This document shows, one piece after another, positions 5,791 to 23,009 of a stretch of 24,414 nt of DNA. The stretch's first letter is position 1; each line of letters opens with the position of its first letter. Source of the stretch: Parachlamydiales bacterium (GTDB lineage Bacteria; Chlamydiota; Chlamydiia; Chlamydiales; SM23-39); assembly GCA_003151315.1 (NCBI GenBank), contig PLXF01000060.1, positions 1 to 24,414 of the forward strand, given 5' to 3'. The notes below the pieces were generated by a model, which ran no database searches, was not told where the DNA came from, and saw nothing but the letters and a program-made list of their open reading frames with translations. The position numbers and the translations under genes are program-made.

Positions 5791-6888
5791 ATGCCCGTCA
5801 AGTATGGCAAATTTGAAATGCCGGACAAAATTAAATTGGATGAAGCAAGTCAAACGGCTACTTTCGCCCGCTTTGTAGTAGAACCTTTCGAAAGAGGGTT
5901 TGGACATACAGTCGGCAACGCGTTGAGAAGGATGATGTTGGCCTCTTTAGAAGCCCCTGCTATCCTCTCTATTAGAATCGAGGGGATTCCCCACGAGTAT
6001 ATGGCGAGCGAAGGGATTGTCCAGGACATGACCCACATCGTATTGAATTTGAAAGGGGCTCTCTTACGCCGCGTTAGCTTAAGCGATGACATGCATCCTC
6101 GCGATATGAAGCTCATTACTAAAAATTTAGAGATCACTGAAGAGATGCTGGAAAAAGGGGGCGGGGAAGTTAAAGTCACGCTTAAAGACCTGATTTCACA
6201 TAATGAGTTTGATGTTGTCAATCCAGAGCACCATCTGTTCACGGTCACTAAGCCGATGTCGAGACGAGTTGACTTGCGCGTAGCTTATGGACGGGGATAT
6301 GTCCCTTCTGAGCGCCACACATTTGAGCGCCAAATCGACGAGATCGTAATCGACACCTGCTTTTCACCTGTAAGACTCGTGAACTACTACGTAGAAAACA
6401 CACGGGTAGGACAAGATACTGACTTTGATCGATTGATTTTGGAAGTGACTACCGACGGACGAGTCTCTCCAGTAGAAGCTCTCACGTTTGCTTCGCAGAT
6501 CGGCATTCTCCATTTCCAAGTATTCGATTTGGTCAAAACGCACATGATCTATTTCGACAAAGGGGAAGCCCAAGTGAATCGAGATCGAGACGAGATTCTC
6601 CAAAAGCTAGCTCTCAAAATCAATGAGATTGAGCTTTCGGTTCGCTCGACCAACTGCTTGGCAAATGCGAATATCGATACGATTGGCGAACTTGTCGTTA
6701 TGCCAGAATCTGAAATGCTCAGATTCCGTAACTTTGGTAAGAAATCTCTCACAGAGATTAAGCAAAAACTCGATGAATTAGAACTGTCCCTAGGGATGGA
6801 TTTGTCCAAATATGGGATCAATCGGGATAATATCAAAACAGTTATCCACAACTATAACTTAGAAAAAGCGGAAAGCGTAGAAGTATGA
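5791..6888 (+). CDS. rpoA: DNA-directed RNA polymerase subunit alpha
   Basis: [35 protein letters not shown], and [13 protein letters not shown]...[12 protein letters not shown]. Confidence 0.98.
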
Positions 6889-7310
6889 GACACGGAAAAC
6901 ACACATTTAAAGTAGGCCGGACAGGATCTCATCGTCGTTGCATGTTGGCTAACATGCTGAAGTCGCTCATCGAAAATGAGCGGATTAGTACGACGGTAGT
7001 GAAGGCGAAAGAACTTCGCCGCCACGCAGAGCGCCTCATCACAATGGCCAAGAAAAATACAGTAGCCTCCCGACGTAATGCGATTGCCGAGCTGATGGTC
7101 ACATACAACTCGCTAACGCATAAAGAGGCTCGATTGGTCAAGAAAGGAGACAAGAGTTCTTTTTCTCGCGACCGTATCGTTATCGATAAGCTGTTTGGCG
7201 AACTGGGCATCCGCTTCGTTGGACGAAACGGAGGATACACCCGTATTATCCGAACCGCTGATCGAATTGGCGATAGCGCCCCTACTTGCTATATCGAATA
7301 TCTCAAGTAA
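6885..7310 (+). CDS. rplQ: 50S ribosomal protein L17
   Basis: MRHGK...[35 protein letters not shown] overlap with rpoA. Confidence 0.98.
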
Positions 7311-7324
7311 TTCTTAACGTCTTG

Positions 7325-7364
7325 AAAACCACCTGTTTGAATCATTTTCAAACAAGTGGTTTTT
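7325..7364 (+). terminator. Rho-independent terminator after rplQ
   Basis: AAAACCACCTGTTTGA-atcattt-TCAAACAAGTGGTTTT: 16-bp stem with one mismatch, ending in a T run. Confidence 0.8.
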
Positions 7365-7369
7365 GTCTC

Positions 7370-7398
7370 TTTACATCCGTATATTTTTCGAGTATGCT
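7370..7398 (+). promoter_or_regulatory. Putative sigma66/sigma70-type promoter of gapA
   Basis: TTTACA (7370-7375), 17-nt spacer, TATGCT (7393-7398), 22 nt upstream of the gapA ATG. Confidence 0.6.
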
Positions 7399-7420
7399 AC
7401 CCCCTTTTAGGGACTAACAC

Positions 7421-8428
7421 ATGGTCAAGCGAATAGCGATTAACGGATTTGGCCGGATTGGACGACTAGTTTTGCGCCAGTCGCTAAAAAGCAGCTCTAT
7501 AGAAGTCGTCGCCATTAACGATCTTGTCCCTGCCGATAACCTAGCCTACCTCTTTAAACACGATACTGTTCACCGTACCTACCCAAAACCTGTCTCTTCT
7601 GAGGGAAATCATCTCCTTATCGACGGGAAAAAAATTATAGTTACGGCTGAAAAGGATCCCACTCTTCTTCCGTGGAAAGAGTTAAATATCGATTATGTCG
7701 TTGAATCGACAGGCCGTTTCACTCAGCGCGAAGGCGCTCTAAAGCATATTGAAGCGGGAGCGCGCCGCGTTCTGATTAGCGCTCCCACTAAAGACGATAT
7801 CCCCACCTATGTGATGGGGGTAAATCACACACACTTTAATCCAAGTCTGGACGTTGTAGTCAACAATGCCTCTTGCACAACAAATTGTTTAGCCCCTTTA
7901 TGTAAAGTTTTAATGGACAATTTCGGCATTGAAGAAGGTTTGATGACGACCGTCCATTCCCTTACAGCAAGCCAACCGACCGTTGATGGCCCATCTCACA
8001 AAGATTGGCGCGGTGGGCGAGCGGCGAGCATGAATATTATCCCAGCTACGACTGGGGCGGCCAAAGCGGTGACGCTCTGTTTACCTGAATTAAAAGGAAA
8101 GCTAACCGGAATGGCCTTTAGAGTTCCTACTCCCGATGTATCCGCTGTAGATCTTACAGTTCGACTTATGCGCGATACAACGTACGAGGAGATTGGCAAC
8201 GCTATGGATGCCGCATCAAAGACAAACCTCAAAGGCATCCTGACAACGACGGACGAGCAATTGGTCTCTTCCGATTTTATCGGCACCACCTACTCTTGTA
8301 TTTACGACAAGCTGGCAGGGATTGCTCTGAACCGTCGCTTTTATAAATTGATTGCATGGTACGACAACGAAATGGGGTATTCCCAGAGAGTGGTCGACCT
8401 GCTGGAGTACATGGCCTCGAAAGAATGA
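7421..8428 (+). CDS. gapA: Glyceraldehyde-3-phosphate dehydrogenase (type I)
   Basis: INGFGRIGR, catalytic [28 protein letters not shown]. Confidence 0.98.
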
Positions 8429-8485
8429 AAACAGCACTCTTGCCGCTACTCCATTTTAACAACCCTTTAAATTACGGTAATTCCA

Positions 8486-9226
8486 GTGAATTTTACACGA
8501 GAACCTATCATCGAGACAGTCATCACCCCCCGAGAAGGGTGCAAGCTTGTCGTTCGCAGCAGCAAAGGGAACGGACAAGAAGATTACTTCGTAGACGCAG
8601 TGGAAGTGGTCTCTTTTGGTCACTCCTTCTTCTTCCGTTCGCTAAAGCGTCCTAAATCCTTTATTGTCCCGGTTAGCGACTACGAAATCCTCGAGCTCAA
8701 AGAGACGCGGATGGTACTGAAAAACGTAGCGACTGAGCGTTCGATCAAGATTGGTGGCGGCAGAGATGCCCCCCGTCCTCGCGAACCGATGGAAGAGCGC
8801 GTTCATGAAGAGCCCCAGGCCCTCCAAGAAGGGGAGCAGCCCGCTCCGCCTCCAGTGGATCGGAAGAGGGATAAACGGCGCCGTGGCCGACGATCTGGAC
8901 GTGACCGGCAAGATCAGCCTCCCGAGCACAGAATGGTCCCCCGAACCTCTGAAGAGGGCGTTCAGGAAGGAGAAGAGGTGCATGCGAAAGAGCCTATGGC
9001 AGAAGAGGTCAAAGCCCCTTCGTTTATTTCGAAGCTGTTCCCACCGCCTCCGACCCTTATTAGAGATACTCTAAGTCGCTATAAAACAACCGAGTCGGTA
9101 GGGGAAGACCCCTTCGCTACACCTCGGGAAGAAAAAGCGCCTAGCCATTTTGACGAATCGGTATTTGACGAGCCGATAGCGCCGAAACACCCCGAGCCGA
9201 CAGAGGACGAAGAAGACCGCCCATAG
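8486..9226 (+). CDS. grgA: Chlamydia-specific transcription factor GrgA homologue (CT504 family), GTG start
   Basis: The N-terminus MNFTREPIIETVITPREGCKL...VEVVSFG...FIVPVSDYEILE matches my recollection of CT504/GrgA. It also has a basic central patch (RKRDKRRRGRR), a PPPPTLI motif and an acidic tail. It follows gapA as CT504 follows CT505. Confidence 0.85.
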   Translation: MNFTREPIIETVITPREGCKLVVRSSKGNGQEDYFVDAVEVVSFGHSFFFRSLKRPKSFIVPVSDYEILELKETRMVLKNVATERSIKIGGGRDAPRPREPMEERVHEEPQALQEGEQPAPPPVDRKRDKRRRGRRSGRDRQDQPPEHRMVPRTSEEGVQEGEEVHAKEPMAEEVKAPSFISKLFPPPPTLIRDTLSRYKTTESVGEDPFATPREEKAPSHFDESVFDEPIAPKHPEPTEDEEDRP

Positions 9227-9308: not shown

Positions 9309-9317
9309 AATTCCTCT

Positions 9318-9400
<83 letters not shown>

Positions 9401-9507
9401 TCCTTATAATGAATGAGTTATGTAATGTTGCATAACCTCCTAACAACTGATGCAAACCGCTGTGGGCCAAATCTGGGTCACAGCGCAAGAAGTTGGAGGT
9501 TTTACAC

Positions 9508-10578
9508 ATGGCGTATATTGAAACGAGAAGGCACCCCGATGGGTCGAAGACTTATCGCGTACGGATTAGACGTAAGGGGATGCCTGACAAATCAGAAACT
9601 TTTTTCTGCAAATCCAAAGCGCAAGCTTGGGGGCGGAAAAAAGAAGCGGAAGTCTGTGATAAACGGCACTTTCCTCGAAAGGAAGACGAAGAGAGGACAT
9701 TTGCGGATCTCATAGATAAATACATTGGGGTTGAGCTTCCGAAAAAGCCCAAGAGCTACAAGAAGCAGTCTATGCAGCTACTTTGGTTCAAGCGACAGCT
9801 TGGCGACTATTTTTTGGTTTATATTACGACTCCTATGATTGCTGAGCTGAGAGACAAACTCCTTTCTGAGAAACTTCCCAGAGGTAGTAAACGAACTTCC
9901 TCTACTACGAATCGATATCTTGCAGCTCTGAGTCATGTCTACACGGTTGCTGTGAAAGACTGGGGTTGGGTTAATGAGAATCCTGTTCTCAACGTTCGGC
10001 GACCAAGAGAGAACAAGGCAAGAGAACGATTTTTAGAAAAGCATGAGATCGAGTGTCTATTAGGTGACTGTTCAAAAAGCAAAAGTGCCTATATTTATCC
10101 CGTGGTTTTCTTAGCATTAGCTACAGGAGCGAGAAAGGGAGAGCTTCTTGCTCTTAAATGGAGTGACATCGATTTCGCCAGAGCAAGGTTGACGTTTCGC
10201 GATACCAAGAATGGAGAATCTCGATCGATTCATTTGAGCAAACAGTCAATGAAGTGCCTCGAGATGGAAAAATCGAAGAGGGTGATATTTAGCGAATATG
10301 TCTTTCCTACCCGTGATGGGAAGAGGCCCGCTGATATTAAAACTGCTTGGGAGGCTGCTGTAAAGCACGCGAACTTAAGTATCTGTTTTCACACGTTGAG
10401 GCACACGGCAGCTAGTCAATTGGCGATGCGTGGGGCTACTTTACTAGAGCTGGCCGCCATTCTCGGACATAAAACTTTGGCTATGGTAAAAAGGTATAGC
10501 CATTTATCTGTTGCTGCGACAGCTGGCGCTCTTGATCGGATGAATGAAGACTTGCTGGAAGGATCTATATATGCGTGA
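9508..10578 (+). CDS. Tyrosine recombinase / phage-type integrase (356 aa from ATG 9508)
   Basis: Full catalytic set: TGARKGE (R), FRDTKNG (K), FHTLRH (H-x-x-R), LGHK (H), KRYSH (Y). It has an N-terminal arm-binding-like region. A GGAGG RBS precedes ATG 9508, which I prefer to the TTG at 9493. Confidence 0.93.
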   Translation: MAYIETRRHPDGSKTYRVRIRRKGMPDKSETFFCKSKAQAWGRKKEAEVCDKRHFPRKEDEERTFADLIDKYIGVELPKKPKSYKKQSMQLLWFKRQLGDYFLVYITTPMIAELRDKLLSEKLPRGSKRTSSTTNRYLAALSHVYTVAVKDWGWVNENPVLNVRRPRENKARERFLEKHEIECLLGDCSKSKSAYIYPVVFLALATGARKGELLALKWSDIDFARARLTFRDTKNGESRSIHLSKQSMKCLEMEKSKRVIFSEYVFPTRDGKRPADIKTAWEAAVKHANLSICFHTLRHTAASQLAMRGATLLELAAILGHKTLAMVKRYSHLSVAATAGALDRMNEDLLEGSIYA

Positions 10579-11461
10579 CCAATCAATGCTAACAGAATCT
10601 AAAAATGAGGCCGAATTTTCTCCTCAGGGATTGCGCAAACGATTTTCACATGAGGCGTTTTTAGCTCACGCTCAGACGATATTGCCGGAGGGAGTGCTAG
10701 ATGAGTCAAGAAGGCGCTTTCAAGAAGATCGAAAGCGCCTCAATGAGGAAATTAGGCATTTCTGGCGGTCATTTGGCGACATGACTCTTTTGGCGTTGTT
10801 TTCAATTTGGGTGGAAGAACGTCCTGACACAGAGGTTATCGAGAATCGCGAAGCTATTCTAGCGGGGAATTTTATTAAATTCCAGGATGCCTCGGGTGAG
10901 TTTTTGCAAGTACGAGATCTCAAATCTAAGGAGTTCTTGTTAACTCTAGAAAACATACGCTGTCAAGGTGAACTATCTGCTCAAGAGCAAGAGCGGTGGG
11001 TTGAAATCTTTGTAGATTTTCATAATTGGATGTCTCTCCAATCAATCTCTTATATCCCAGAAATCGTTGATCCAGACAAAGAGAGAACTCGCAATCGAGC
11101 ATTGTCTCATGCGGATTTTGTTCGTCTGATTGGCTGTTTAGATGATCGATGTCGTCTTGTATCGAAATTGCTTTATTTTGGCGGCAACCGAACCATTGAG
11201 CAAATAATCGAGATTGATATTGAAAATATTGATTTTGAAAAACATTTTATTTCATTTGATTCAAGCCTCTATTCTTATCCATTGCATGTGTTCCGAGACA
11301 TTCGACGGCTGATTGGATCTCGTGCATCAGGTCAAGTCTTCGTAGGAAGGCAAAATTCCCCGATCAATCCCTCAACGATTTTCAGAAACGTGAAAGAGGC
11401 TGCGGTCGGAATTGGTCTTGGAGATTTATTTTCTCCTAAAATCCTCACTCAAAATCGGTAG
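10571..11461 (+). CDS. Pgp7/Pgp8-like tyrosine-recombinase-fold protein lacking most catalytic residues (296 aa)
   Basis: ATG 10571 overlaps the integrase stop (ATGCGTGA). LLYFGGNRTIEQI is box I-like, followed by IDFEKHFISF, SYP, IGSRASGQVFV and SPKILT. The protein ends before the GH/Tyr region. Confidence 0.7.
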   Translation: MRDQSMLTESKNEAEFSPQGLRKRFSHEAFLAHAQTILPEGVLDESRRRFQEDRKRLNEEIRHFWRSFGDMTLLALFSIWVEERPDTEVIENREAILAGNFIKFQDASGEFLQVRDLKSKEFLLTLENIRCQGELSAQEQERWVEIFVDFHNWMSLQSISYIPEIVDPDKERTRNRALSHADFVRLIGCLDDRCRLVSKLLYFGGNRTIEQIIEIDIENIDFEKHFISFDSSLYSYPLHVFRDIRRLIGSRASGQVFVGRQNSPINPSTIFRNVKEAAVGIGLGDLFSPKILTQNR

Positions 11462-11564
11462 TTTTGTTATTTGGGCTTAGCCTAAATGCGATCTGCTCTC
11501 GCAAGTTCTCTGACATTTATTTTCTCATGTTCCTCTATGGCCGAACTCCTTTTGCACTGTAATA

Positions 11565-11593
11565 TTGCGAATATCATTCCAATTGTGTAAAAT
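11565..11593 (+). promoter_or_regulatory. Putative promoter of the xis-primase unit, overlapped by two palindromes
   Basis: TTGCGA (11565-11570), 17-nt spacer, TAAAAT (11588-11593). Palindromes ATATT-gcg-AATAT (11562-11574) and TGTAAAA-tt-TTTTACA (11586-11601). Confidence 0.5.
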
Positions 11594-11640
11594 TTTTTAC
11601 AGCATCGGTTGTTAGAAGAGGTTGTGAATGAGGAAAATTT

Positions 11641-11904
11641 ATGCAAAAGGAGAGGGAAAGATTCATGAACAGTGAAATTTGTAGAAAAGATGAGGATGTC
11701 TTTGCAAAGACAATTGGTAATTTGGCAGAGCTAAGGTCTTATTGTCGACAAAATCGATGGCCTCGACTTAGTCAATGGCATCATTGGATCTATTCTAAAC
11801 ATCCCATAGCGGCGGCTTGTGTGAAAAAAATCGGGGGTCGATATCTGATCGATTTGGGGGCTTTGACCTCATATATCCAAAGCGCTTCTTTAGAGGAGAG
11901 GTGA
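11641..11904 (+). CDS. Small excisionase/AlpA-like winged-helix DNA-binding protein (alternative start 11665)
   Basis: WP...W++WIY...VKKIGGRYLID pattern typical of xis-like proteins. Located between the integrase module and the primase. Confidence 0.65.
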   Translation: MQKERERFMNSEICRKDEDVFAKTIGNLAELRSYCRQNRWPRLSQWHHWIYSKHPIAAACVKKIGGRYLIDLGALTSYIQSASLEER

Positions 11905-12026
11905 TCAAAGTTCATAAGCATTATGTGATGAGGCTGCCTAGGCTTTAGGGCAATGGTTGGGCAGCTTTTAGAGTTTATAAAAACAAAAGAGGCTATGCGG
12001 GCAAGCAGAGCGGCTGAAAATCTGAG

Positions 12027-14654
12027 ATGTTTATGGCAAGCTATTCTACCAGCGATGATCCTCGCCTTCAAGCAAAACTAGAAAGATCAAGTAATTATAC
12101 CATCTACGATCTTGAACAAGAGTGTCTTTCTCAAATGGCTAGAGATGGAATCCATTTTCCAAAAACAAGACTTGAAACAGATGGGATTTTGCGCCGGTTT
12201 TCAAGAGATCAATGCCAAGATAAGGAAGATGAATTTTATTGGTGTCGATCAGGAGTATCCCAAAATGGAAATCCCTGGTTGAGTTGCTACTATGGAACTT
12301 GGTCTGGTGGAAAAAAAGATTATAAATATAGCAGCTACAGGGGAGATCCAAAATTCTCGCAAATGGAAAGAGAAACCCTCGCTGAGGAGGAGAATCAATG
12401 GAATAAGATTCAAGAGCGGATTCAAAATGCACAGTTAGATTGGGAAAGAGCGTCTGAAGAACCTATTGACACTGGCCATTTGGACTATCTTTCTAAGAAA
12501 ATGGTGGAACGTCACGGTGTAAAATTTAGTAAAAGTAAATTGAAGGAGAGGGCTTCGGTAACAGGCAAAGAGATTTGGGTAGAGTACCCAACTCTGGTCA
12601 TTCCAATTCGAAATATTGAAGGTAGGCTTCAGGGAGTTCAACATATTTTCCCAAGTGGAGAAAAACGAATTCACGGTCTTAAAAAAGGTAATTTTCATGT
12701 GATTGGATCAGTCGGCCCCACTGGCTCTATCTTGATCGGGGAGGGATATGCGACGGTCGCCAGCGTCTATGAGGCAATCAGAGAGCCATCTGTAGTCACA
12801 TTTGATTGCGGTAACTTTGATCCCGTGATTCAAAATCTGAAGAAAATGCATCCTCAACATCGAATCGTCATTATCGGAGATGATGACGCAGAGACGGAGA
12901 GAAAAAACAAAGAGAACCCAGGCAAATTGAAAGCTATAGCTGCCGCTAAAAAGCATCGTTGTAAAGTGATATTTCCGCAATTTCCGGAAGGATTTTATTT
13001 GGGCGGCGGGAGTCTGCCATCAGATTTTAACGATTTGAGAGTCCATTTTGGAATGGAGGAAGTAAAAAAACAGCTCATGCAAGGGATCTCCCAATCCAAA
13101 AATGCAGAGTCTTCTGAAGAAGATTCTGATGGGGCATTCATCATACGTCGAGGAGGAACTCACTTAGCGGCTTCGCGAGGAAGTCTTCTTTTATCTGATC
13201 CTTCTAATGGGATATTCCAGCGAGCTGGTCAGACAGTTCGAATTATCAAGTGTCCTAAATGGCCTCAGCGCAAAGCAGGTCCTATTCAGCGTCAAAACGA
13301 GTCGTTGATCATTGTGCAGGCCCAAGAAATTGAAATTGTACGAATGTTATCCGAAAAGGCGCTTTGGAAGAAATTTGATGCGCGATCAAATGGGTACATA
13401 CGAACTGATTTTCCTGATAAAGCTGCAAAAATGATTCTTAGCGAAAGGGGTGTTAACCTCCCGGTTCTCACCGGATTTGTTAATTCACCGACGCTAAGAG
13501 TAGATGGATCGATATTAGAAAAGCCAGGATATGATCTTGAGTCGGGTCTTTTTTTCGATCCTTGCGGCGCTGTATTTCCTCCGATTCCAGTTTATCCGAC
13601 AAAAGATCAAGCAGTTGAGAACTTGTTGCTTCTAAGAGATATGGTGAAAGACTTTCCCTTTGAAAATAAAGTAAGCGAATCTGTGGCAATTGCTCAAATC
13701 ATGACGGGGGCGGTGCGTCGCTCGTTACCTCTTTCTCCTGTATTTGGGAATTCAGCTCCTGTTATGGAATCGGGAAAAACGCTCCTAGTTGATATCAATG
13801 CCATGCTCTACACGGGAAAAAATGCGGTTTGTATTTCTCCTGCTAAAACCGAGGAAGAAAACAGAAAGAGGTTATTTAGTGTCTTGCTGGCAGGTGATCT
13901 GATTGTTTGCATAGATAATGTCAGCGAGCCTTTTGAGAGTGATGCAATGTGTACGATTGTGACGAGCCAGTATTGGCAAGAAAGGTTGTTGGGGACAAAT
14001 ACAAAGGTTGAGATTCCAACCAACGCTCTTTTTATTTTTACTGGGAATAATCTGGTCTTTCGAGGAGATATGAGCACTAGAGTTCTTATGTGTCAAATAG
14101 ATCCGAGATGCGAACGTCCAGGCGAACGCGTTTTCAGTCGTGATTTAAGAAAGTACGTCCCAGAGAATCGAGGCGCGCTCGCTTGCGCTGCCCCAACAAT
14201 CATACGGGCCTTTATAGCTGCTGGGAGTCCAGATCAGGGGCTTCCTCCCTATCGATTGTTTAGTGAATGGTCTCATTGGATTAGATCGTCGCTTGCGTGG
14301 TTGGATATGCCCGATCCATATCAAAGCTCGAAAATTGCGGCGGATAGCGATCCAATCAAGAAGCAATTAAAAGTGCTATTTGAAATTAGCTATGCAATTA
14401 TTCCCCTGTCGTTTACTGCAAAAGAACTATGCGTTATTGCGAATGACCCTATTCGTAGAGAGTCCGATAAAAACGTTCAAGCGCTCTATGATGCACTTCT
14501 TGAATTTGCTTCAGATCGCGAAGGGAAAATTAGTTCGATCGTCCTAGGCAACAAAATTCGTCAACATAAGGGACGTCAAATTAATGGATATCGGCTTGAG
14601 GCTGTTGGGGAGGATAGGGGTGGCGCTGTCTTGTGGAAAATTTTGAAAATTTAG
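12027..14654 (+). CDS. Primase-helicase replication protein (TraC/P4-alpha-like Toprim domain plus C-terminal P-loop helicase)
   Basis: Toprim motifs IGEGYATVAS, FDCGN, IIGDDD, NPG and SDFNDL. The C-terminal ATPase has APVMESGKTLL (Walker A-like), VCIDNV (Walker B), FTGNN and TRVL. Confidence 0.85.
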   Translation: MFMASYSTSDDPRLQAKLERSSNYTIYDLEQECLSQMARDGIHFPKTRLETDGILRRFSRDQCQDKEDEFYWCRSGVSQNGNPWLSCYYGTWSGGKKDYKYSSYRGDPKFSQMERETLAEEENQWNKIQERIQNAQLDWERASEEPIDTGHLDYLSKKMVERHGVKFSKSKLKERASVTGKEIWVEYPTLVIPIRNIEGRLQGVQHIFPSGEKRIHGLKKGNFHVIGSVGPTGSILIGEGYATVASVYEAIREPSVVTFDCGNFDPVIQNLKKMHPQHRIVIIGDDDAETERKNKENPGKLKAIAAAKKHRCKVIFPQFPEGFYLGGGSLPSDFNDLRVHFGMEEVKKQLMQGISQSKNAESSEEDSDGAFIIRRGGTHLAASRGSLLLSDPSNGIFQRAGQTVRIIKCPKWPQRKAGPIQRQNESLIIVQAQEIEIVRMLSEKALWKKFDARSNGYIRTDFPDKAAKMILSERGVNLPVLTGFVNSPTLRVDGSILEKPGYDLESGLFFDPCGAVFPPIPVYPTKDQAVENLLLLRDMVKDFPFENKVSESVAIAQIMTGAVRRSLPLSPVFGNSAPVMESGKTLLVDINAMLYTGKNAVCISPAKTEEENRKRLFSVLLAGDLIVCIDNVSEPFESDAMCTIVTSQYWQERLLGTNTKVEIPTNALFIFTGNNLVFRGDMSTRVLMCQIDPRCERPGERVFSRDLRKYVPENRGALACAAPTIIRAFIAAGSPDQGLPPYRLFSEWSHWIRSSLAWLDMPDPYQSSKIAADSDPIKKQLKVLFEISYAIIPLSFTAKELCVIANDPIRRESDKNVQALYDALLEFASDREGKISSIVLGNKIRQHKGRQINGYRLEAVGEDRGGAVLWKILKI

Positions 14655-14668
14655 CCGCTTTCCTCGTG

Positions 14669-14802
14669 TGCATAGGCTGCATACGATGCATAGTCTCTTC
14701 TCGACTCTTCTGCAAAAGTATCAGTTTCTCTCAAATTTTTCTCAAAATGACAAATTCCACGCTTAGATCCATATTGAGTATGCACCCTATGCAGCCTATG
14801 CA
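14669..14802. repeat. Inverted arrays of three TGCATA hexamers with 9-bp period (iteron/ori-like)
   Basis: TGCATA-ggc-TGCATA-cga-TGCATA (14669-14692), 86-bp spacer, TATGCA-ccc-TATGCA-gcc-TATGCA (14779-14802). The outer 15 bp of the two arms are perfect reverse complements. Confidence 0.85.
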
Positions 14803-14899
14803 AATCAGGGTATTTACTCGGGATAATATTGACATTTCAGGAGAAATATTTTCTCAGAGTAAAGTCCTCTATGCCTATTGAGCAGCGGGTGGGAACAAT

Positions 14900-15073
14900 T
14901 TAAATCAGTCCAGGATTTCTTCCGTTATCTGGAAGAAAGATCATAACCATGTTTTTAGGAGTAGGATGTTCTGGTCTAGGAGCTTTTGGATCAAATATGA
15001 TGACGGGGTCTGCCTGCATTGCTGGTCTAATTTTTTCTAAGTTTTCGAGGCGCCTTTTAGTTGAAGCTTTCAT
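14900..15073 (-). CDS. 57-aa hypothetical protein (below the ORF-track cut-off), coupled to DUF5681
   Basis: MKASTKRRLENLEKIRPAMQADPVIIFDPKAPRPEHPTPKNMVMIFLPDNGRNPGLI. Its ATG overlaps the DUF5681 TGA (ATGA), with GGAGG a few nt upstream. Confidence 0.65.
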   Translation of the reverse strand: MKASTKRRLENLEKIRPAMQADPVIIFDPKAPRPEHPTPKNMVMIFLPDNGRNPGLI

Positions 15074-15510
15074 TTCTTTTCGCCCTCCAAAGCTGCAAGC
15101 CGTTTCTCAAATTCCGTTAACTCTAGAGCTTTCGTGTGAACGTCAATGATTCTGGCGAGGGTTTCTCCTTCACAGGGAGAAATCTGACCAGAGCCCACAG
15201 CATTCGTAATACATTCTACAGCTTTCAGGAGGTCGGAGCTGTTTTCCATTTTAGGAAGATCGATTTGGATCGGGTTGTCCTTTCTTGGCGGCAGAAGTCG
15301 GTCTAGAATCATTTTGGCCGCTTGCATATCTCCAGCCTTAGCCTCTTGAATCACTGTTTTGCAGATATCTTCGACTTCGTTCGCAAACAATTGTTCGGCG
15401 ATTAGGGTGGATCGATTTCGAGTGCCCTTTGGCTTACCTCTGGGATTTCCTGATTTCCCTTTTGGAAATTGGCCTTTCGCCTGTATTTTGCCTGTATTTG
15501 CAGGTGTCAT
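15070..15510 (-). CDS. DUF5681-family protein (often in small-terminase-like position in prophages/satellites)
   Basis: GQFPKGKSGNPRGKPKG motif, AKAGDMQAAKMILDRLLP, and C-terminal helix EFEKRLAALE. Confidence 0.8.
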   Translation of the reverse strand: MTPANTGKIQAKGQFPKGKSGNPRGKPKGTRNRSTLIAEQLFANEVEDICKTVIQEAKAGDMQAAKMILDRLLPPRKDNPIQIDLPKMENSSDLLKAVECITNAVGSGQISPCEGETLARIIDVHTKALELTEFEKRLAALEGEKK

Positions 15511-15621: not shown

Positions 15622-15948
15622 ATGGAATATAAGTATGACCACTTTGGGATACCCGTAAAGCAAAAACGTAAAGGGATGATTTATATCCCAGAATATAAAG
15701 TCTGGAGTTCTGACTACGAGAAGGACCCTTATCGCATCGAATGGATCTTTTTCGAAAATGAGAGTCATCTACATCCTCTAATCCAAACGATTTCTCACGT
15801 CTGTTTCCTAGTTGAGGACATAGAGAAAGCGGTGTTCAAGAAAAAGCTTCTTTTGAAGCCCATTCATTATCAAGGATACCAGATGGCGTTTATCGAGGAA
15901 GAGGGGGTGCCGATTGAATTCATGCAACTTTCGAGGTCTGAGAAATAA
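15622..15948 (+). CDS. VOC/glyoxalase-like protein
   Basis: YDHFGIP, HVCFLVEDIE and AFIEEEGVPIEFM fit the VOC beta-alpha-beta-beta-beta metal-ligand pattern. GAGG RBS upstream. Confidence 0.65.
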   Translation: MEYKYDHFGIPVKQKRKGMIYIPEYKVWSSDYEKDPYRIEWIFFENESHLHPLIQTISHVCFLVEDIEKAVFKKKLLLKPIHYQGYQMAFIEEEGVPIEFMQLSRSEK

Positions 15949-15976
15949 CAGATCTTTGGGCTCAATCTTCAGAGAT

Positions 15977-16972
15977 TTATGAGTGCCGTTTGGCAAATTT
16001 TGGAAATAATCGTTCTAGATTTTTATAACGAATCATCTCTTTCTGATCGCTGGAGATAAAATCGCATCCATTAAAAGAATCGAAGACCGCTCTAATTCCT
16101 TCATCCGAGACAAATGGTGAGTCCGTCCCCATCACAATTTGTTCGCAAGACACGTAATCTGTTAAGCATCGCAACGTGGAGGGGCTGGTTGCCATAGCAG
16201 TATCATAAAATAAACGCTTTAAATAATGGTCTACTCCTTTTGGAGTATTTTGGAAGGCGCTTGGAGCTAAAAATTTTTCATACAATTTGAATCTTCCGGC
16301 TAAATAAGGAATCACGCCTCCCGCATGAGGAATGATGAAATGGATATTGGGAAATTGGTCAAATACACCTGCTGTCAATAAGTGAATTACGGACCTCGAC
16401 GTGTCACAGACAAACTCAAACAAAGTGAGTGGAAGATGATGCATGTCTGAACAACAGAATGTGGGAGCCGTCGGGTGGATAAATACCTTGGCTTTTCTCT
16501 CATTTAACGCTTCGTAAAGAGGATTGAAATGGCTGTTGCCGAGGTGCATCTGATCATAATTTGATAATAAAACGATCCCATCCATTTTTAGGACATCAAA
16601 TACGTACCGCAATTCTTCTAAAGCAGCATGAATATCTGGCAATGGAAGAGTCGCAAATGCGCCATATTTCGTGGGATTTGTGCGAGACATTTCTGCTGCA
16701 TACTCATTGCATTGTCTGGCCATATTTTTTGCAAATTTGACATCACCAAAATAAACGCCGGGTGCAGAAATAGAAGTCAGAGCTGAACGAATCGAATGTT
16801 TAGCCATTGTTTTTTCGGAGTCATCCCATGTCCACTCAGGAATCTTAACTCCACCCGTTGGCCATTGAGGAAGCTGCGTAAATCCCTTTGCATTGACACC
16901 AAATTGTTTTTCCAAAGCAATACGATAAAAAGGCGGGATGATATGATGATGAACGTCAATATAGTGATGCAT
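15977..16972 (-). CDS. Amidohydrolase_2 family metal-dependent hydrolase/decarboxylase (ACMSD/6-methylsalicylate decarboxylase-like)
   Basis: IDVHHH (HxH), VFIHPT, HAGG, FYDTA, MGTDSPF. Confidence 0.85.
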   Translation of the reverse strand: MHHYIDVHHHIIPPFYRIALEKQFGVNAKGFTQLPQWPTGGVKIPEWTWDDSEKTMAKHSIRSALTSISAPGVYFGDVKFAKNMARQCNEYAAEMSRTNPTKYGAFATLPLPDIHAALEELRYVFDVLKMDGIVLLSNYDQMHLGNSHFNPLYEALNERKAKVFIHPTAPTFCCSDMHHLPLTLFEFVCDTSRSVIHLLTAGVFDQFPNIHFIIPHAGGVIPYLAGRFKLYEKFLAPSAFQNTPKGVDHYLKRLFYDTAMATSPSTLRCLTDYVSCEQIVMGTDSPFVSDEGIRAVFDSFNGCDFISSDQKEMIRYKNLERLFPKFAKRHS

Positions 16973-16992
16973 ATTCCCGCTTATATGCGACT

Positions 16993-17499
16993 TTATTTTT
17001 TAGAACAACTATTTGATCGTTTAAAAAGAAAGTAGCCGATCCACAAACTAGCACGTATCGATAAGAACATCACAATCATCGAGACTATGAACCATCCCAC
17101 GATATCGAGAATGCTAAACTGTGTTTCCTTCTCAAGAAATACAAGATAAATAGCGGAGCACGGAATCAAGAGAAAAATTGCAGAAATAGTTCCAGGAAGA
17201 ATTTTTACGTGCCCAAAAGAGGAAATGCAGTGCTGTATTCCATTGGCTAAAAGCGACATAGCTACAATCGTCGTAGCAAATCGAAGTATTTGACTGGTCA
17301 TCAAGTAGTTTGAAATGCAAACTCCGCTTACAAAAATAGTCAAGATCATGAGCGCGTATAGAAATACTGTCCGATGGCGGAATTTTGAATTTATTGCCTT
17401 AAGGTAGAATGTCTTGAATTTTTCAAAAGATCGATATTCTTCAATATTATGTACGATAAAGACTACCGGAAGAAAAAGTCCTAATATTTTTGTGTGCAT
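16993..17499 (-). CDS. HXXEE-domain membrane protein
   Basis: FIVHNIEEY motif, a second His (NGIQH), PGTISA, and about 5 TM segments. Confidence 0.8.
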   Translation of the reverse strand: MHTKILGLFLPVVFIVHNIEEYRSFEKFKTFYLKAINSKFRHRTVFLYALMILTIFVSGVCISNYLMTSQILRFATTIVAMSLLANGIQHCISSFGHVKILPGTISAIFLLIPCSAIYLVFLEKETQFSILDIVGWFIVSMIVMFLSIRASLWIGYFLFKRSNSCSKK

Positions 17500-17560
17500 A
17501 TTCGTCAGCTCTTTAACGTAAGAACAGTGATTACTTTACTGTCTCCAGGCATCACAGAAC

Positions 17561-17570
17561 GGGGGGGGGG
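17561..17570. repeat. G10 homopolymer in the intergenic leader upstream of the HXXEE gene
   Basis: Ten consecutive G at 17561-17570. Confidence 0.9.
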
Positions 17571-17625
17571 CTTTCGGTTTTAATGGGTAATTTGAAATCG
17601 AGCAAAATCGGTTTCTCAAATTTCT

Positions 17626-18057
17626 TCATCGAAGACTCTTCCTCAACAAAAACATTTTTGAATTTCCCTCGTAACCCTCTCTAACGAATTCAATGGAATA
17701 CCCGAGTTTTTGATAGAAGTGAAGTCCCTCCCAATCCATTGTATTTAGAGTCACGAAATTAGCGTCGCGTTCTCTTCCCATTTTCTCAGCTTCGTGCATG
17801 AGCTTCGTTCCCCATCCCTGACGACGTAGGCTTTTATCAACCCAAAGGGAATCTATGTAAAGAGAGCTATACATTACGACTCCAGAGACTCCCCCAAAAA
17901 TATTTTGTTTCTGATCCTTCATGAAAACACTCCACGGTTGAATAGGAGGAAACCCCTTCATCTGGAAGGCATACTCACTAATTCCCCTATAAAGGACTCC
18001 CTCATACTCTGCTGGAATCGCATTGTAGCGTTCTAAAATTATGGAGCCGTCAATCAT
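17626..18057 (-). CDS. GNAT family N-acetyltransferase (GhoS-like small type)
   Basis: LYIDSLWVDKSLRRQGWGTKLM acetyl-CoA motif A, and LHFYQKLGY motif B. Confidence 0.9.
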   Translation of the reverse strand: MIDGSIILERYNAIPAEYEGVLYRGISEYAFQMKGFPPIQPWSVFMKDQKQNIFGGVSGVVMYSSLYIDSLWVDKSLRRQGWGTKLMHEAEKMGRERDANFVTLNTMDWEGLHFYQKLGYSIEFVREGYEGNSKMFLLRKSLR

Positions 18058-19067
18058 GAGATCTTTCCTTTGACCATGAGAAAATGTTTTACGTTTTTTT
18101 CATCTCTGCAATCGCGATAAAACGTCGCAAGATTGATAAAGCCTGCTTTTTCATAGACATGCGTCGCTCTTGCATTAGATGCTGCTGGATCTATGAAGAA
18201 TGTATCTACTGGAGGGATCATTTTCTCTCCGACAAACTGCATAAATGCCTTTAAAGTGGGAGCTGCCAATCCCTGTCCCAAATATTTGTTATTTCCAATC
18301 ATAAAATCGATGCTCCACGTTCTACCTGTGGAAGATAGATGGGCTCTCCAAGTTTCTGGCAAATCGGGCTGTTCAGCTCGGACTTCAGATGTCATCAACA
18401 AACAGTAAGGTTCTGTGTCTGCCAAGCCCACCCAATAGTCAAACATTCCGTTCCAATACGGAGATGGTTCTTTGCGCTCCTTTATAAAAATTAGGAGATC
18501 TTCTCGAAATTCTGGACTGGTATCCCAAAATTCTTGGATATGAGGCTCGGCAAGCCATTGCAAAACGGTCTTTTGATGTTCAAGCCCAAGTTTCTTGAAA
18601 GTGAGTATGGGACGTCGAGAGGCTTTTCGGTAGTATTCCAATGCTTTTTTGAATCCAGGTCTCAAAGGAAGACTTTTTAAATCATTGCTGTCTGCCCATC
18701 GATAGTTACTATGTTCACTAGATAGCTCGATTGATGGCTTTTTATCCAAGTGAATCTTAAACATGTAATAAATATAATCGAGATCTGGCTTGCGAATGTA
18801 CAAAGTTTCCAAATAGATGATTTGAGAAGCAGATGAGGGCTGGATGCCTGTTTCTTCGAATAGCTCTCGTCTTGCTGCTGCTTCAGGAGTTTCTCCATGC
18901 TCTAGTTTCCCTGCAGGCACTCCCCACATCCCTTCATCCGTTTTGCCTTTCTCCTGTTGAATGAGAAGAATCTGGCCATTTATCTCTAACCAACAACCAG
19001 AAGCTCTCATTGTGGCCTGGAAATTCACCAGCTTTTCATCGCTTACTTCAGCCTTTAACGTCATCAT
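18054..19067 (-). CDS. NUDIX hydrolase fused to an AAC(6')-like/RimJ-type GNAT domain
   Basis: Complete Nudix box GKLEHGETPEAAARRELFEETGI. The C-terminal half has WLAEPHIQEFWD, IDFMIGNNKYLGQG and IDPAASNARATHVYEKAGF. Confidence 0.85.
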   Translation of the reverse strand: MMTLKAEVSDEKLVNFQATMRASGCWLEINGQILLIQQEKGKTDEGMWGVPAGKLEHGETPEAAARRELFEETGIQPSSASQIIYLETLYIRKPDLDYIYYMFKIHLDKKPSIELSSEHSNYRWADSNDLKSLPLRPGFKKALEYYRKASRRPILTFKKLGLEHQKTVLQWLAEPHIQEFWDTSPEFREDLLIFIKERKEPSPYWNGMFDYWVGLADTEPYCLLMTSEVRAEQPDLPETWRAHLSSTGRTWSIDFMIGNNKYLGQGLAAPTLKAFMQFVGEKMIPPVDTFFIDPAASNARATHVYEKAGFINLATFYRDCRDEKNVKHFLMVKGKIS

Positions 19068-20926
19068 AAATTACTTCCATTAAATGCCTTAATTTTATTC
19101 ACAATGGCCTCTTTTGTATATCCAAACCGCTCAGCTAAATCGGAAGTCGAACCCGATTCTCCAAACCAAGTAAGCGCAATTGCAATCCCATCAGCTCCAA
19201 TGTATTTGTGCCATCCCTGGTCCACCCCGGCCTCGATGCTGACTTTAACTTTTCCTTGGAGAATCGTCTTTTTATATGGGAGAGGCTGGCTTTCAAACAA
19301 TTCCCAAGAGGGCATGGATACAACACGGGCTGTGGGTCCCAATTCCTTGGCCACTTCAAGTGCCAAATGAACCTCCGAACCTGTGGCTAAAAGTAGGTAG
19401 TCGACTTGATCACCTATTTCTTTTTGTAAAATGTAGGCTCCACGTCCAACCCCTTCTGCATAGGATCTAGAAGAAAGTTCATTTATTGGCTGTCGAGAAA
19501 GAATAATAGCTGATGGTCCCTCGTGTAAAAGGGCTGCCAACCAAGACATCTTCACTTCATTTGCATCGGCAGGCCGCAAAACCAAAAGTCCCGGAATAGC
19601 GCGAAGAGACGCAATCTGCTCAATGGGTTGATGAGTGGGGCCATCAGGACCAATGAAAATCGAATCATGCGTCAGTTGATAAATTACTTTGAGCTGCATC
19701 AAGCTGGTCATTCGGATAGCACTACGCATATAGTCTACGAACCCAAGAAACGTCCCTATGAATGGAATGATCGATCTGTCTAAAGCCATTCCAGCGGCAA
19801 TGCAGGCCATTCCGAATTCCCGGACTCCATATTTGATATTGCGCCCCTCAAACTGCCCCGTTTGGATGAGCCCATATTTTTCTAAGTAAGTCCCATCTGA
19901 AGAGGATAAATCAGCAGAACCACCTATCAATTGAGGAAGAAGAGCTGCCAGCACCTGAAGCACTGCATGAGACGCCCATCGTCCTGCTACAGGGGCAGGT
20001 ATTGAGATGTTTTGTAGGATCGATTCCAAATGAGAGGGGACTGAAAACATGGATGGAGGGGAACCTGCAACGCCTCTTTGTTGAAAGAAGTGGTAAATTC
20101 CTGGATCTACGTGAAAAGAAACATCCGGCAGCCCTAGAGCTTTCTTGGCTAGAGCAACCTCTTCTTTCCCAAGAGGACGACCATGAGCAGCGGGCGTTCC
20201 TTGTTTATTCGGCGCCCCACAACCGATTCGCGTATGAGCGATGATTAGAGTAGGTTTTCCCTGATGTGTTCTAAGAGGGGCTAAAGCCGCCCTAATTTGA
20301 TCTAGGTCGTGGCCATCTACAGTGGTCACATCCCATCCTTGAGCTTGGAAGCGAAGAGGAAGATTTTCGGAAAAGCTTTCATGAACGTATCCATCCAAAG
20401 TAGTGGAATTGCTGTCATAAATAAGAATCAGATTGTCGAGGCGAAGGTGGCCAGCTATTGAGCAAGATTCCATAGCAACTCCTTCCATTAAATCTCCATC
20501 ACCGGCTACGACTACGACTTTAGAATCAATTCCCAGATGCTTGAGTCCAAGAGCCTGTCCTACCGCGAATCCAACTCCTTGCCCATCCACACCAGTTGTC
20601 GCTTCTACTCCTTCAGTCCTAGTCAAGTCAGGATGACTCGGTGTTTTAGAATCGATTTGTCTAAATTTTTTCAAATCGTTCAATGTTAAAGGAAACCCAG
20701 CGAGATGCAAGCAGCTATAAAGCCAAAGGGACCCATGTCCTACTGAAAGAATGAGACGATCTCTATGTGGCCATTTTGGGTGAGCAGGATCAAACCTTAA
20801 GAATTCGCCGAATAGATATGCGCCAATTTCTGCACAACCCATAGGCATTCCAGGATGGCCGGAACCTGCAAGCTCTACTGCATCCATCGTGAGATGCCGA
20901 ATTGTATTTGCTATTTTTTTTAACAT
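19064..20926 (-). CDS. tkt: Transketolase (divergent, 620 aa, accessory copy)
   Basis: GHPG, DRLILSVGH, TPP motif GDGDLMEG...DSN, AAHG, GSADL, YGVREFGM, THDSI..GPDGPTHQP, RPAD, LSRQ. Confidence 0.9.
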   Translation of the reverse strand: MLKKIANTIRHLTMDAVELAGSGHPGMPMGCAEIGAYLFGEFLRFDPAHPKWPHRDRLILSVGHGSLWLYSCLHLAGFPLTLNDLKKFRQIDSKTPSHPDLTRTEGVEATTGVDGQGVGFAVGQALGLKHLGIDSKVVVVAGDGDLMEGVAMESCSIAGHLRLDNLILIYDSNSTTLDGYVHESFSENLPLRFQAQGWDVTTVDGHDLDQIRAALAPLRTHQGKPTLIIAHTRIGCGAPNKQGTPAAHGRPLGKEEVALAKKALGLPDVSFHVDPGIYHFFQQRGVAGSPPSMFSVPSHLESILQNISIPAPVAGRWASHAVLQVLAALLPQLIGGSADLSSSDGTYLEKYGLIQTGQFEGRNIKYGVREFGMACIAAGMALDRSIIPFIGTFLGFVDYMRSAIRMTSLMQLKVIYQLTHDSIFIGPDGPTHQPIEQIASLRAIPGLLVLRPADANEVKMSWLAALLHEGPSAIILSRQPINELSSRSYAEGVGRGAYILQKEIGDQVDYLLLATGSEVHLALEVAKELGPTARVVSMPSWELFESQPLPYKKTILQGKVKVSIEAGVDQGWHKYIGADGIAIALTWFGESGSTSDLAERFGYTKEAIVNKIKAFNGSNL

Positions 20927-21186: not shown

Positions 21187-21231
21187 TGTAACATAGGCAC
21201 TCATTGACTTTTAGTGAGTGCCTGTGTTACA
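21187..21231 (+). promoter_or_regulatory. 19-bp inverted repeat: probable AbiEi operator overlapping the abiE promoter
   Basis: TGTAACATAGGCACTCATT-gactttt-AGTGAGTGCCTGTGTTACA (17/19 match). TTGACT -35-like hexamer at 21204-21209. The repeat ends 9 nt before ATG 21241. Confidence 0.75.
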
Positions 21232-21240
21232 CATAGAAAC

Positions 21241-21837
21241 ATGAAACGATCTAAGTATCAGCACCTTCTTGATCCGCTTCTCAAAGAGTCTATATTCAAG
21301 GCCAGTGAGGCTCGCTCTAGGGGCATTCCCCCTCGAATGCTTGCGCATTTTTGTCAGAAAGGACTGATTGAAAGGGTCGGGCGCGGGCTATATCGGGTAG
21401 CCGAGGCTTCTAGCGGAGTCAACCTTGATTTTGAAGAGCTTGTGCTAACCGCTTCGAGTATCCCCAGAGGGGTTGTTTGTCTCGTCTCAGCCCTTTGCTA
21501 TTATAATTTGACCGATCAGATCATGAGGGAATATTGGATTGCCATTCCCAACACCGATAAGAGCCCGAAGCGTCCCCATACCCGAATCGTTCGAATGAGG
21601 AATATGAGTCTCGGACTAACAACCGTAAAGATGGGGAAATACGAGGTAAAAATCTTTGATCGTGAGAGGACTGTTGTCGACTCATTTCGATATTTGAGCG
21701 ACGAAATTGCCATCAAGGCTCTTCAAGCCTATTTACAACCTTTTGGCGAAAAGAAGGCAGACCTGCCAAAGCTTTCAAGATACGCCAAAGCATTAAGAAT
21801 AAATATTAATAAATATATTGTGGCTTTAACAACATGA
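21241..21837 (+). CDS. abiEi: Type IV TA antitoxin AbiEi (wHTH plus C-terminal domain)
   Basis: GLIERVGRGLYR wHTH wing, VVCLVSALCYYNLTDQI, KIFDRERTVVDSFRY. ATG 21241 is preferred over GTG 21214, which lies inside the operator. Confidence 0.85.
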   Translation: MKRSKYQHLLDPLLKESIFKASEARSRGIPPRMLAHFCQKGLIERVGRGLYRVAEASSGVNLDFEELVLTASSIPRGVVCLVSALCYYNLTDQIMREYWIAIPNTDKSPKRPHTRIVRMRNMSLGLTTVKMGKYEVKIFDRERTVVDSFRYLSDEIAIKALQAYLQPFGEKKADLPKLSRYAKALRININKYIVALTT

Positions 21838-22682
21838 CATCTGCATTAGAACAATCATTTAAAAAACGACTACAGCTCATTGCCAAGGAAAGAAACATAA
21901 CTCCTGCTGAAGTTTGGCAAAACGTCATCACAGAAAGATTTCTCGTGCGCCTATGCCGATCGCCTTACCACTCACATTTTGTCCTGAAAGGGGGAACGCT
22001 ATTGGCTCGGTATGTGGACATTGGTAGAGAAACCAAAGACTTGGATTTCACGATCCAACGACTCAGCAACGAAATCAGCGCCCTGCAGAAGACTTTTAAT
22101 GATATTGTACGAGTTGAGATTGAGGACGGGTTTGTTTTTATGAATCCAGTCGTCGCTCCTCTCGAGCATTTTCACATGGAGTATCCCGGTGCTCACGTCA
22201 AAATAGAGGTTCGTTTTGGCAAAGCCAAATTTCCTCTCTTCATCGATCTAGGATTTGGTGATCTGGTTCAGGTACGTGAGAAAGAGTTTTTGCTTCTCTC
22301 AAGTTCCAAAGGGCCTTTGTTCGAACCTTCGCTAAAGGTAAATTGCTATCCAATGGAATTTGTTTTCGCAGAGAAGCTTGAGACGGCAATCTTTCGAGGG
22401 GCCGACAACAGCCGGATGAAAGACTTTCACGATCTTTACACTCTTGCGAGTTCAGAGAAAATGTTAAATGGGAAGGATGCAGTCAAGGCGATTCAGTTGG
22501 TGTTTGAACATCGGAAGACGCCGCTTAGATTACCGATGCAGTTCGATTCTTCAGCGCTTGAAGCGTTGCAGCAATACTGGGGACGTTATCATAAAACGGC
22601 AACAGTGTCGGCCCGTTTGCCGGATCAAATTACAGAAGTGATCGAGACCATTAATGGAATCCTTGACAAAATGAATTGTTGA
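21834..22682 (+). CDS. abiEii: Type IV TA toxin AbiEii (DUF1814 nucleotidyltransferase)
   Basis: ERFLVRL, FVLKGGTLL, RETKDLDF, IDLGFGD, AEKLE, NSRMKDFHDLY. ATGA overlap with abiEi. Confidence 0.9.
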   Translation: MTSALEQSFKKRLQLIAKERNITPAEVWQNVITERFLVRLCRSPYHSHFVLKGGTLLARYVDIGRETKDLDFTIQRLSNEISALQKTFNDIVRVEIEDGFVFMNPVVAPLEHFHMEYPGAHVKIEVRFGKAKFPLFIDLGFGDLVQVREKEFLLLSSSKGPLFEPSLKVNCYPMEFVFAEKLETAIFRGADNSRMKDFHDLYTLASSEKMLNGKDAVKAIQLVFEHRKTPLRLPMQFDSSALEALQQYWGRYHKTATVSARLPDQITEVIETINGILDKMNC

Positions 22683-23009
22683 TAAGGAGATGGTGTGAAA
22701 TCGCTTCGTCAGAGGTTCTAGGATCTGGGATTACGAGATGAGATGAGTGGAGCGTTGTTTTCTTCCTTTTGAGCGGTTTTAGGGCCGTTTCTGGATGTTT
22801 TTGTCTTCTGTATCCATTTGCACCCGAGCTTGGATTGGAACACGACGGAATTTCTGATAACCTTTGCGATCATTTGCGCTACAATTGTCTTCATCAAGAA
22901 AGATTGTTTTGGTATCATCCTCTCTCTTAGATCGTAAGAAATTTCTTTGCGATTATTAGGGCATTTTGAAAATAGCACGCCCTTGCTGGGTCTGACAAAT
23001 GGAGGTTTT

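Follow-up and report, generated by a model that had tools for sequence, protein, structure and literature searches.

The described elements closest to the one reported here are the phage-inducible chromosomal islands (PICIs), including those of the Staphylococcus aureus pathogenicity island (SaPI) type, and the PICMIs of Vibrionaceae (minimalist chromosomal islands, also phage-inducible). SatelliteFinder assigns an element to the PICIs when four of five core components are found, and more than 99.9% of the known PICIs are in Proteobacteria and Firmicutes (PMC10085698). PICMIs are defined by an integrase, an AlpA protein (PF05930/PF12728), a primase with DUF3987/DUF5906 and a neighbouring fis gene, and their integrase-overlapping gene, iolg, is needed for excision (PMC10803314). 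In the literature we found no paper linking phage satellites with Chlamydiota, and the SatelliteFinder paper makes no mention of chlamydiae (PMC10085698). Here we analyse a stretch of 24,414 nucleotides from a Parachlamydiales bacterium (contig PLXF01000060.1; this whole stretch is called the window), whose positions 9401-15510 hold the conserved core of an integrative island that replicates itself; the island, 19.8 kb long, is inserted in a tRNA-Leu(taa) gene, and these positions make up its left third. We read this island as a PICI/PICMI-like phage satellite, a reading to which we give a probability of roughly 0.45. A preliminary description, made from the letters of the window, had taken 9401-15510 for the complete element; this extent was wrong, as the element measures 19.8 kb and not 6 kb, and its right attachment site (attR) lies on another contig, C41.

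The window is the entire contig C50 of a metagenome-assembled genome (MAG; 1.85 Mb, 198 contigs, 94% complete). Its host is an environmental chlamydia, judging by SecY, which is 84-85% identical to that of Chlamydiales/Chlamydiae MAGs and 71-73% identical to those of Rhabdochlamydia and Simkania. The tRNA-Leu(taa) gene (9317-9403, plus strand) was detected with ARAGORN, and its 3' 55 nt (9347-9401) are the left (attL) copy of a direct repeat. The exact 55-nt repeat has a single further occurrence in the genome, on the minus strand of C41 (10682-10628), where it is a partial tRNA; we read this copy as attR because such a partial tRNA is what attR predicts. C50 breaks off within an RHS-repeat gene and C41 within the remaining RHS part, the end of C50 and the reverse complement of C41 overlap by 28 exact nucleotides, and, once joined, the two parts of the protein align colinearly with an RHS paralog of 1549 aa on contig C125. 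The island runs from 9347 to the window end and on through C41:15424-10628, for a total of about 19.8 kb, with a G+C content of 0.41-0.43 along its length, compared with 0.47 in the flank and 0.46 in the genome.

Searches with Pfam and PHROG found no match to capsid, portal, large terminase (TerL), tail, lysis, relaxase or type IV secretion system families anywhere in the island. The preliminary description had already reported the window free of capsid, tail, portal, relaxase and type IV secretion genes, and this holds for every major open reading frame (ORF) in it. It had also pointed to structural or conjugation genes beyond the window as grounds for assigning the element elsewhere; the C41 part holds, before attR, only the rest of the RHS gene and a 239-aa ORF, and no structural or conjugation genes. 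The DNA that follows tRNA-Leu in four genomes of the same genus shares nothing with the window or with C41, and therefore no empty site was recovered. One same-genus genome (G004:C33:448187-448238; L017/L030) has a partial tRNA-Leu 3' end, 87% identical, about 1.2 kb downstream of its tRNA-Leu; this copy may be what an island at this site left behind.

Within the core, the order given in the preliminary description was recovered in full using ARAGORN, Pfam, PHROG and shuffled sequences: tRNA, integrase, a gene in the regulator position, a gene in the xis position, primase-helicase, origin-like repeats and DUF5681 with a small coupled ORF. The tyrosine integrase (361 aa, 9493-10578, plus strand; PF00589, E = 8e-31; Int_N; phrog_1, E = 4e-69) has paralogs at 34-42% identity on contigs C125, C142 and C92, and is 44% identical to that of an island in the same tRNA in an uncultured-bacterium MAG (L033). 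Its stop is overlapped by the start of a 305-aa ORF in the regulator position (10544-11461, plus strand). This ORF matches NCBIfam XerA (E = 5.8e-11; residues 123-300, profile positions 35-217 of 263; 42 bits, with a cut-off of 220) and, more weakly, PF00589 (E = 0.009), and on these matches, which are far below the family cut-offs, it is a degenerate tyrosine-recombinase-like protein. We considered it as kin of the genes at the corresponding position in the class A and class B elements described below and rejected this, as they are unrelated. The 87-aa gene that follows (11641-11904, plus strand) has no Pfam or PHROG match. An hhalign comparison links it to the ~70-aa positional gene of the class A elements (E = 1e-4, probability 58%), with which it has a WP...GGRxLID motif in common, and it is its position that suggests an excisionase (Xis) or AlpA-like role.

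The 875-aa primase-helicase (12027-14654, plus strand) has two parts, an N-terminal Toprim primase (residues 90-363; phrog_2249, DNA primase, E = 4e-54) and, fused to it, a P-loop domain at the C-terminus (residues 367-872; phrog_29234, E = 9e-94). This second domain, of an unnamed family, is widespread next to integrases. The translation shows a GKT Walker A-like motif, and a profile of the protein found no solved relative in PDB. The primase domain is 47% identical to that of the paralog on C125, whose helicase domain is DUF3987. Sequence comparison indicates modular swapping of helicase domains between elements. Across the elements, one primase domain (44-47% identical) is joined to three C-terminal NTPase domains, namely the unnamed family, DUF3987, and AAA_25 with a helix-turn-helix.

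Immediately 3' of the primase-helicase gene is a putative replication origin (14669-14802, no strand assigned), in which three copies of TGCATA with a 9-bp period (14669, 14678 and 14687) face three inverted copies (14779, 14788 and 14797) across a spacer of about 86 bp (34% G+C). In the whole window TGCATA is found 20 times, with 9.7 expected, and none of 100 shuffles reached 20. An 82-aa ORF that overlies the repeats (14633-14881) is probably not a gene. The L033 island has the same layout right after its primase-helicase stop (GGTATTG in three direct and three inverted copies with about 90 bp between), and on C125 direct and inverted repeats of the type TTGTAGAyG lie 3' of the primase-helicase stop. 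Because this layout is kept beside three helicases that have diverged, and the iteron sequence differs at each, arrays that are fixed in place and change in sequence with the helicase have the look of cognate, putative origin-initiator pairs. SaPI origins are laid out in the same way, with iterons flanking an AT-rich stretch adjoining rep. The three natural helicase-iteron pairs (window, C125 and L033) offer material for the study of origin specificity.

The core ends with two genes on the minus strand. The first encodes a DUF5681 protein (146 aa, 15070-15510; PF18932, E = 2e-14), a candidate small-terminase-like DNA-binding protein, and the second a 57-aa protein (14900-15073), called LPDNGR here after its motif, whose start overlaps the DUF5681 stop by 4 nt (ATGA), so that the two are translationally coupled. 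The small ORF is a real gene, with a homolog directly 3' of DUF5681 in 33 loci and with the motifs MKxSxKKRxExLEK and LPDNGR conserved; tblastn detected no phage homolog of it. The suggestion in the preliminary description that DUF5681 is terS-like has positional support, because DUF5681 directly precedes TerL in phage contigs. Of 71 IMG/VR contigs that contain a DUF5681 ORF, about 50 have a TerL-like ORF immediately after it in the same direction, in more than 10 size architectures. Pfam Terminase_6N confirmed TerL after DUF5681 in four of the five viral records tested (two are complete genomes that have terminal repeats), and in contig C59 of a Chlamydiales MAG (G062:C59) DUF5681 lies 92 nt upstream of TerL, followed by portal and HK97 capsid genes. 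The domain of unknown function DUF5681 thereby gains a testable function, as a small terminase or terminase adaptor.

Of 55 island DUF5681 proteins, 53 have a motif R-h-x-x-h-E within their last 30 residues, and 32 of 34 small ORFs have it within their first 25 (background: 2% of all ORFs). The copies in the window are RLAALE at the DUF5681 C-terminus (15070-15110) and RLENLE at the N-terminus of the small protein (15030-15073), and the common motif suggests that the two proteins may pair via similar helices. As an N-terminal docking motif of TerL it was rejected, being present in just one of 53 ORFs in the TerL position. An AF2 model of DUF5681 (pLDDT 79) has a disordered basic N-terminus with an invariant SGNPxGKPKG, followed by four helices; the protein has no sequence match in PDB.

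DUF5681 homologs at 50-84% identity are found in dozens of Chlamydiota MAGs, and 27 of 201 sampled genomes of the order (13%) carry the family. The gene order, for which the preliminary description had proposed a search in Chlamydiota, recurs in at least 10 fetched loci from other Chlamydiota genomes (class A): tRNA, integrase, a ~240-aa gene, a ~70-aa gene, primase-helicase, and convergent to these the small ORF and DUF5681. Their core spans about 6 kb, like that of the window; the tRNA is Thr or Met at the loci where the fetched stretch included it, and no tRNA repeat (attR) was found within the fetched flanks. A second group of chlamydial islands (class B) is inserted in tRNA-Pro(ggg) and contains a P4-type integrase, a 197-aa gene, a true AlpA (PF05930), a ~305-aa gene, DUF5681, the LPDNGR gene and variable cargo. 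Three that were measured (L222, L225 and L252) span 10-11.5 kb between repeats of 48-55 nt, and the class B islands (these three and the L224-L247 group) are mostly without a primase. L252 holds two copies of the repeat, which suggests a tandem insertion. In proteobacterial relatives the integrase, small genes, primase-helicase and DUF5681 are all co-directional; the orientation of DUF5681 opposite to the primase, given as a caveat in the preliminary description, is a property of the chlamydial loci and not of these relatives. Proteobacterial DUF5681 is followed by defence-like cargo, with examples being a P-type ATPase, a NACHT protein and a TIR protein paired with a PD-(D/E)XK nuclease; TerL or portal genes were never found there. 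Across Chlamydiota and Proteobacteria, then, one core is combined with cargo that varies.

Two further islands are sisters of the one in the window. The first, on C125 of the same genome (L009; 3494-21146, 17.6 kb), is inserted in tRNA-Phe and bounded by 44-nt repeats. Behind the tRNA come an integrase (34% identity), genes of 322 and 98 aa, the primase-helicase and iteron-like repeats; cargo follows, and an RHS toxin of 1549 aa stands at the far end. A convergent 171-aa ORF in it was examined as a DUF5681 relative and rejected as not related. The second is the L033 island, complete at 14.6 kb in the same tRNA-Leu(taa) with a 57-nt repeat; its full-length primase-helicase is 34% identical to that of the window, and it contains neither structural genes nor DUF5681.

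Copies of the island are found in metagenomes. Contigs about 99% identical to 9467-~21650 come from moss, wastewater and bioreactor samples of different studies, and such near-identical copies across habitats hint at mobility; in the listed X1 contig, identity is down to about 92% over ~21,800-22,600. Core and cargo travel together, since a single 9.9-kb contig covers 9467-19378 at about 99% identity. The runs X1, X7 and X9 cover the island and not the flank at 6000-9069, and this missing cover is not counted as evidence of a different host. Two joints (9400-to-21188 and 9406-to-15327) were set aside, as one side of each is only 29-33 nt long and lies inside the conserved tRNA.

As a PICI/PICMI-like satellite, the island would respond to a trigger by integrase-mediated excision as a circle, in which the integrase-overlapping gene and the small protein of the Xis position would help. 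The primase-helicase would recognise its own iterons and replicate the circle. The DUF5681 protein, whose family stands at the small-terminase position in tailed phages, would then bind island DNA together with its small partner and recruit the large terminase of a helper, and island DNA would be packaged in helper capsids and transferred, as in SaPI-type PICIs. Phage hijacking is the single most likely transfer route, at a little less than even odds, because the island carries a conserved gene of a terminase-associated family. The broader proposal, that Chlamydiota carry a widespread family of true phage satellites with DUF5681 as the satellite small terminase, is tentative and in our judgement more doubtful. 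If it is true, tailed dsDNA phages of the pac type, as yet undiscovered, would infect the obligate intracellular chlamydiae and carry a cargo of toxin, defence and metabolic genes from one to another. What is new here is the presence and spread of DUF5681 islands in Chlamydiota, together with the positional evidence for the role of DUF5681. Little is understood of gene flow in chlamydiae. In the chlamydial loci examined, DUF5681 belongs to a compact tRNA island that replicates itself, carries this terminase-associated gene and moves metabolic genes, RHS toxins and abortive-infection systems; such an island points to a transfer route so far unrecognised, perhaps by tailed phages.

A number of observations weigh against the satellite reading, beginning with DUF5681 itself. 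The case for a small-terminase (TerS) role is entirely one of gene position, and the fold gives no answer: Foldseek against PDB returned no match, BFVD returned only other DUF5681 proteins and no TerS, and VIA-align found only generic helical hairpins (Z <= 7.1). In Felix O1-like phages the DUF5681 gene is not beside the terminase, and a DUF5681 protein has been reported in a virion proteome (PMC8954984), which counts against a small-terminase role. The island form of DUF5681 has an extra C-terminal helical part with the R-h-x-x-h-E motif and a partner gene, and the phage forms have neither. Neither sister island, on C125 or in L033, has DUF5681, which is therefore not essential to the island family. 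Neither a capsid-size-redirection gene nor an identifiable repressor was found in the island, the capsid-morphogenesis component of PICIs has no Pfam or PHROG match in the window or the C41 part, and 19.8 kb is large for a PICI. Nor was a candidate for the tailed dsDNA helper implied by the preliminary description found in this genome. TerL (two families searched), portal and HK97 capsid were not detected in the 94% complete MAG, nor was a microvirus capsid, in a search that had no positive control. To our knowledge, the only characterised chlamydiaphages are Microviridae, with small ssDNA genomes.

Among the 201 genomes of the order, TerL (PF03354) was found in two and HK97 capsid in five. 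DUF5681 is found in three of the six sampled genomes with TerL or capsid matches, compared with 27 of 201 overall, and these six are too few and too related for the difference to count. Two MAGs of the order hold phage-like head modules with TerL, portal and HK97 capsid (L311, G062:C59 6925-15549; L312, the 78-kb contig G048:C18). Neither contig has homologs of genes of the present genome, and their chlamydial link is therefore one of binning alone.

Nearly as likely as a satellite is an integrative replicative island that is independent of phages, forming a plasmid-like circle and spreading by transformation, vesicles, recombination during co-infection or an unrecognised route. DUF5681 and its partner would then be a DNA-binding regulator or a maintenance pair co-opted from phages. 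The lack of helper genes in this genome fits such an island, as do the sister islands that have the same integrase, primase and origin without DUF5681, the difference between the island and phage forms of DUF5681 with its inconclusive folds, and a large metabolic and toxin cargo that resembles that of ordinary genomic islands. Harder to explain without a role in packaging is that a family which precedes TerL in many phages is kept at 50-84% identity in islands that have no TerL, and the core order matches that of experimentally proven satellites (PICMI, PMC10803314; PICI, PMC10085698); both points count against a phage-independent island.

A decayed prophage, in which integration, replication and small-terminase genes were left after loss of the structural genes, is unlikely. 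The integrase, primase and DUF5681 do have phage relatives, and HK97-type head modules exist in a few Chlamydiales MAGs. Against this, the compact order, intact frames and conserved partner gene recur in at least 10 chlamydial and many proteobacterial genomes, the 55-nt repeats are exact, and copies ~99% identical are found in several habitats; separate decay events would not converge on one architecture. Least probable of all is an integrative mobilizable element (IME) moved by a conjugative system encoded elsewhere, for which a weak NikA/ParD-like ribbon-helix-helix protein in L033 and the conjugation genes carried by some environmental chlamydiae could be cited, and against which stand the absence of any relaxase match in the island, of a PF03432 relaxase or VirD4-type coupling protein (PF02534) in the MAG, and of a recognised oriT.

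The remainder of the island is cargo. A block at 15622-20926, on the minus strand except for a glyoxalase-like fragment on the plus strand, contains by Pfam this fragment, amidohydrolase_2, HXXEE, GNAT and NUDIX-GNAT genes and a transketolase. The transketolase (19064-20926) is a second copy in this genome, coupled to the NUDIX-GNAT and GNAT genes; the other copy, 54% identical, is at the edge of contig C79. Downstream are an AbiEi/AbiEii toxin-antitoxin pair of the abortive-infection type (21214-22682, plus strand; PF13338, E = 1e-11; PF08843, E = 1e-37) and the N-terminal 313 aa of the RHS-repeat toxin (23476-24414, plus strand; PF05593), which continues on C41. The cargo further includes two ORFs without an assigned family and the 239-aa ORF on C41, and both islands of the genome, in the window and on C125, end with an RHS gene. 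The last 25 AbiEii codons with the DNA downstream of them (22624-22737) recur at C125:22115-22227 (114 nt, 82% identical), about 1 kb outside the C125 island on its attR side, and look like what is left of a further AbiE module.

Set against the described classes, the island is outside the formal definitions of PICI, PICMI, P4-like element, prophage and integrative and conjugative element (ICE). Between its att sites the capsid, portal, TerL, tail and lysis genes of a prophage are lacking, and no relaxase match places it with ICEs or IMEs. Of the PICI components, the island has the integrase (PF00589) and the primase-replicase module (PHROG primase and P-loop domain), and tail, holin and portal genes were not found anywhere across it. 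The 87-aa ORF occupies the position of the regulation module (alpA, merR or stl); its one link is the hhalign match at E = 1e-4 to the positional gene of related elements. With two to three of five core components recognisable, the island is not a PICI by the SatelliteFinder definition. The PICI-like satellite proposed in the preliminary description is supported in part, by the lack of structural and conjugation genes, the gene order conserved in Chlamydiota, the position of DUF5681 in phage contigs and the SaPI-like origin layout, and not as a class assignment. Of the PICMI markers it has the integrase only, there being no AlpA match and no DUF3987 in the window protein, and its site being a tRNA gene.

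PICIs and SaPIs (PMC10085698) share with the island an integrase and a primase-replicase module, defence genes in the cargo, the lack of tail, holin and portal genes and, with DUF5681 as the candidate, a terS-like gene unaccompanied by terL; they differ in that DUF5681 is not a recognised TerS family and is, in chlamydiae, convergent to the replication genes, and in that the island has no capsid-morphogenesis gene. PICMIs (PMC10803314) have the same gene order: the integrase comes first, its stop is overlapped by the next gene (iolg in PICMIs, the 305-aa ORF in the island), and a small gene in the AlpA/Xis position and a primase follow; they too are without capsid-remodelling genes, and the C125 sister island carries their primase marker, DUF3987. 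Unlike the island, PICMIs are about 6 kb long, lie next to fis rather than in a tRNA gene and have a Pfam-recognisable AlpA and no terS-like gene, whereas the 19.8-kb island has no AlpA match, a different helicase family, DUF5681 with its partner and a large cargo. By analogy with these systems, the half of the island that serves integration and replication would work as in a PICI or PICMI. The tycheposons of Prochlorococcus belong to a different phylum and have different integrase and replicase families, and are like the island in being integrated in tRNA genes; they, too, combine a tyrosine recombinase and a primase/helicase replication module with variable cargo, and some also have PICI-like packaging genes.

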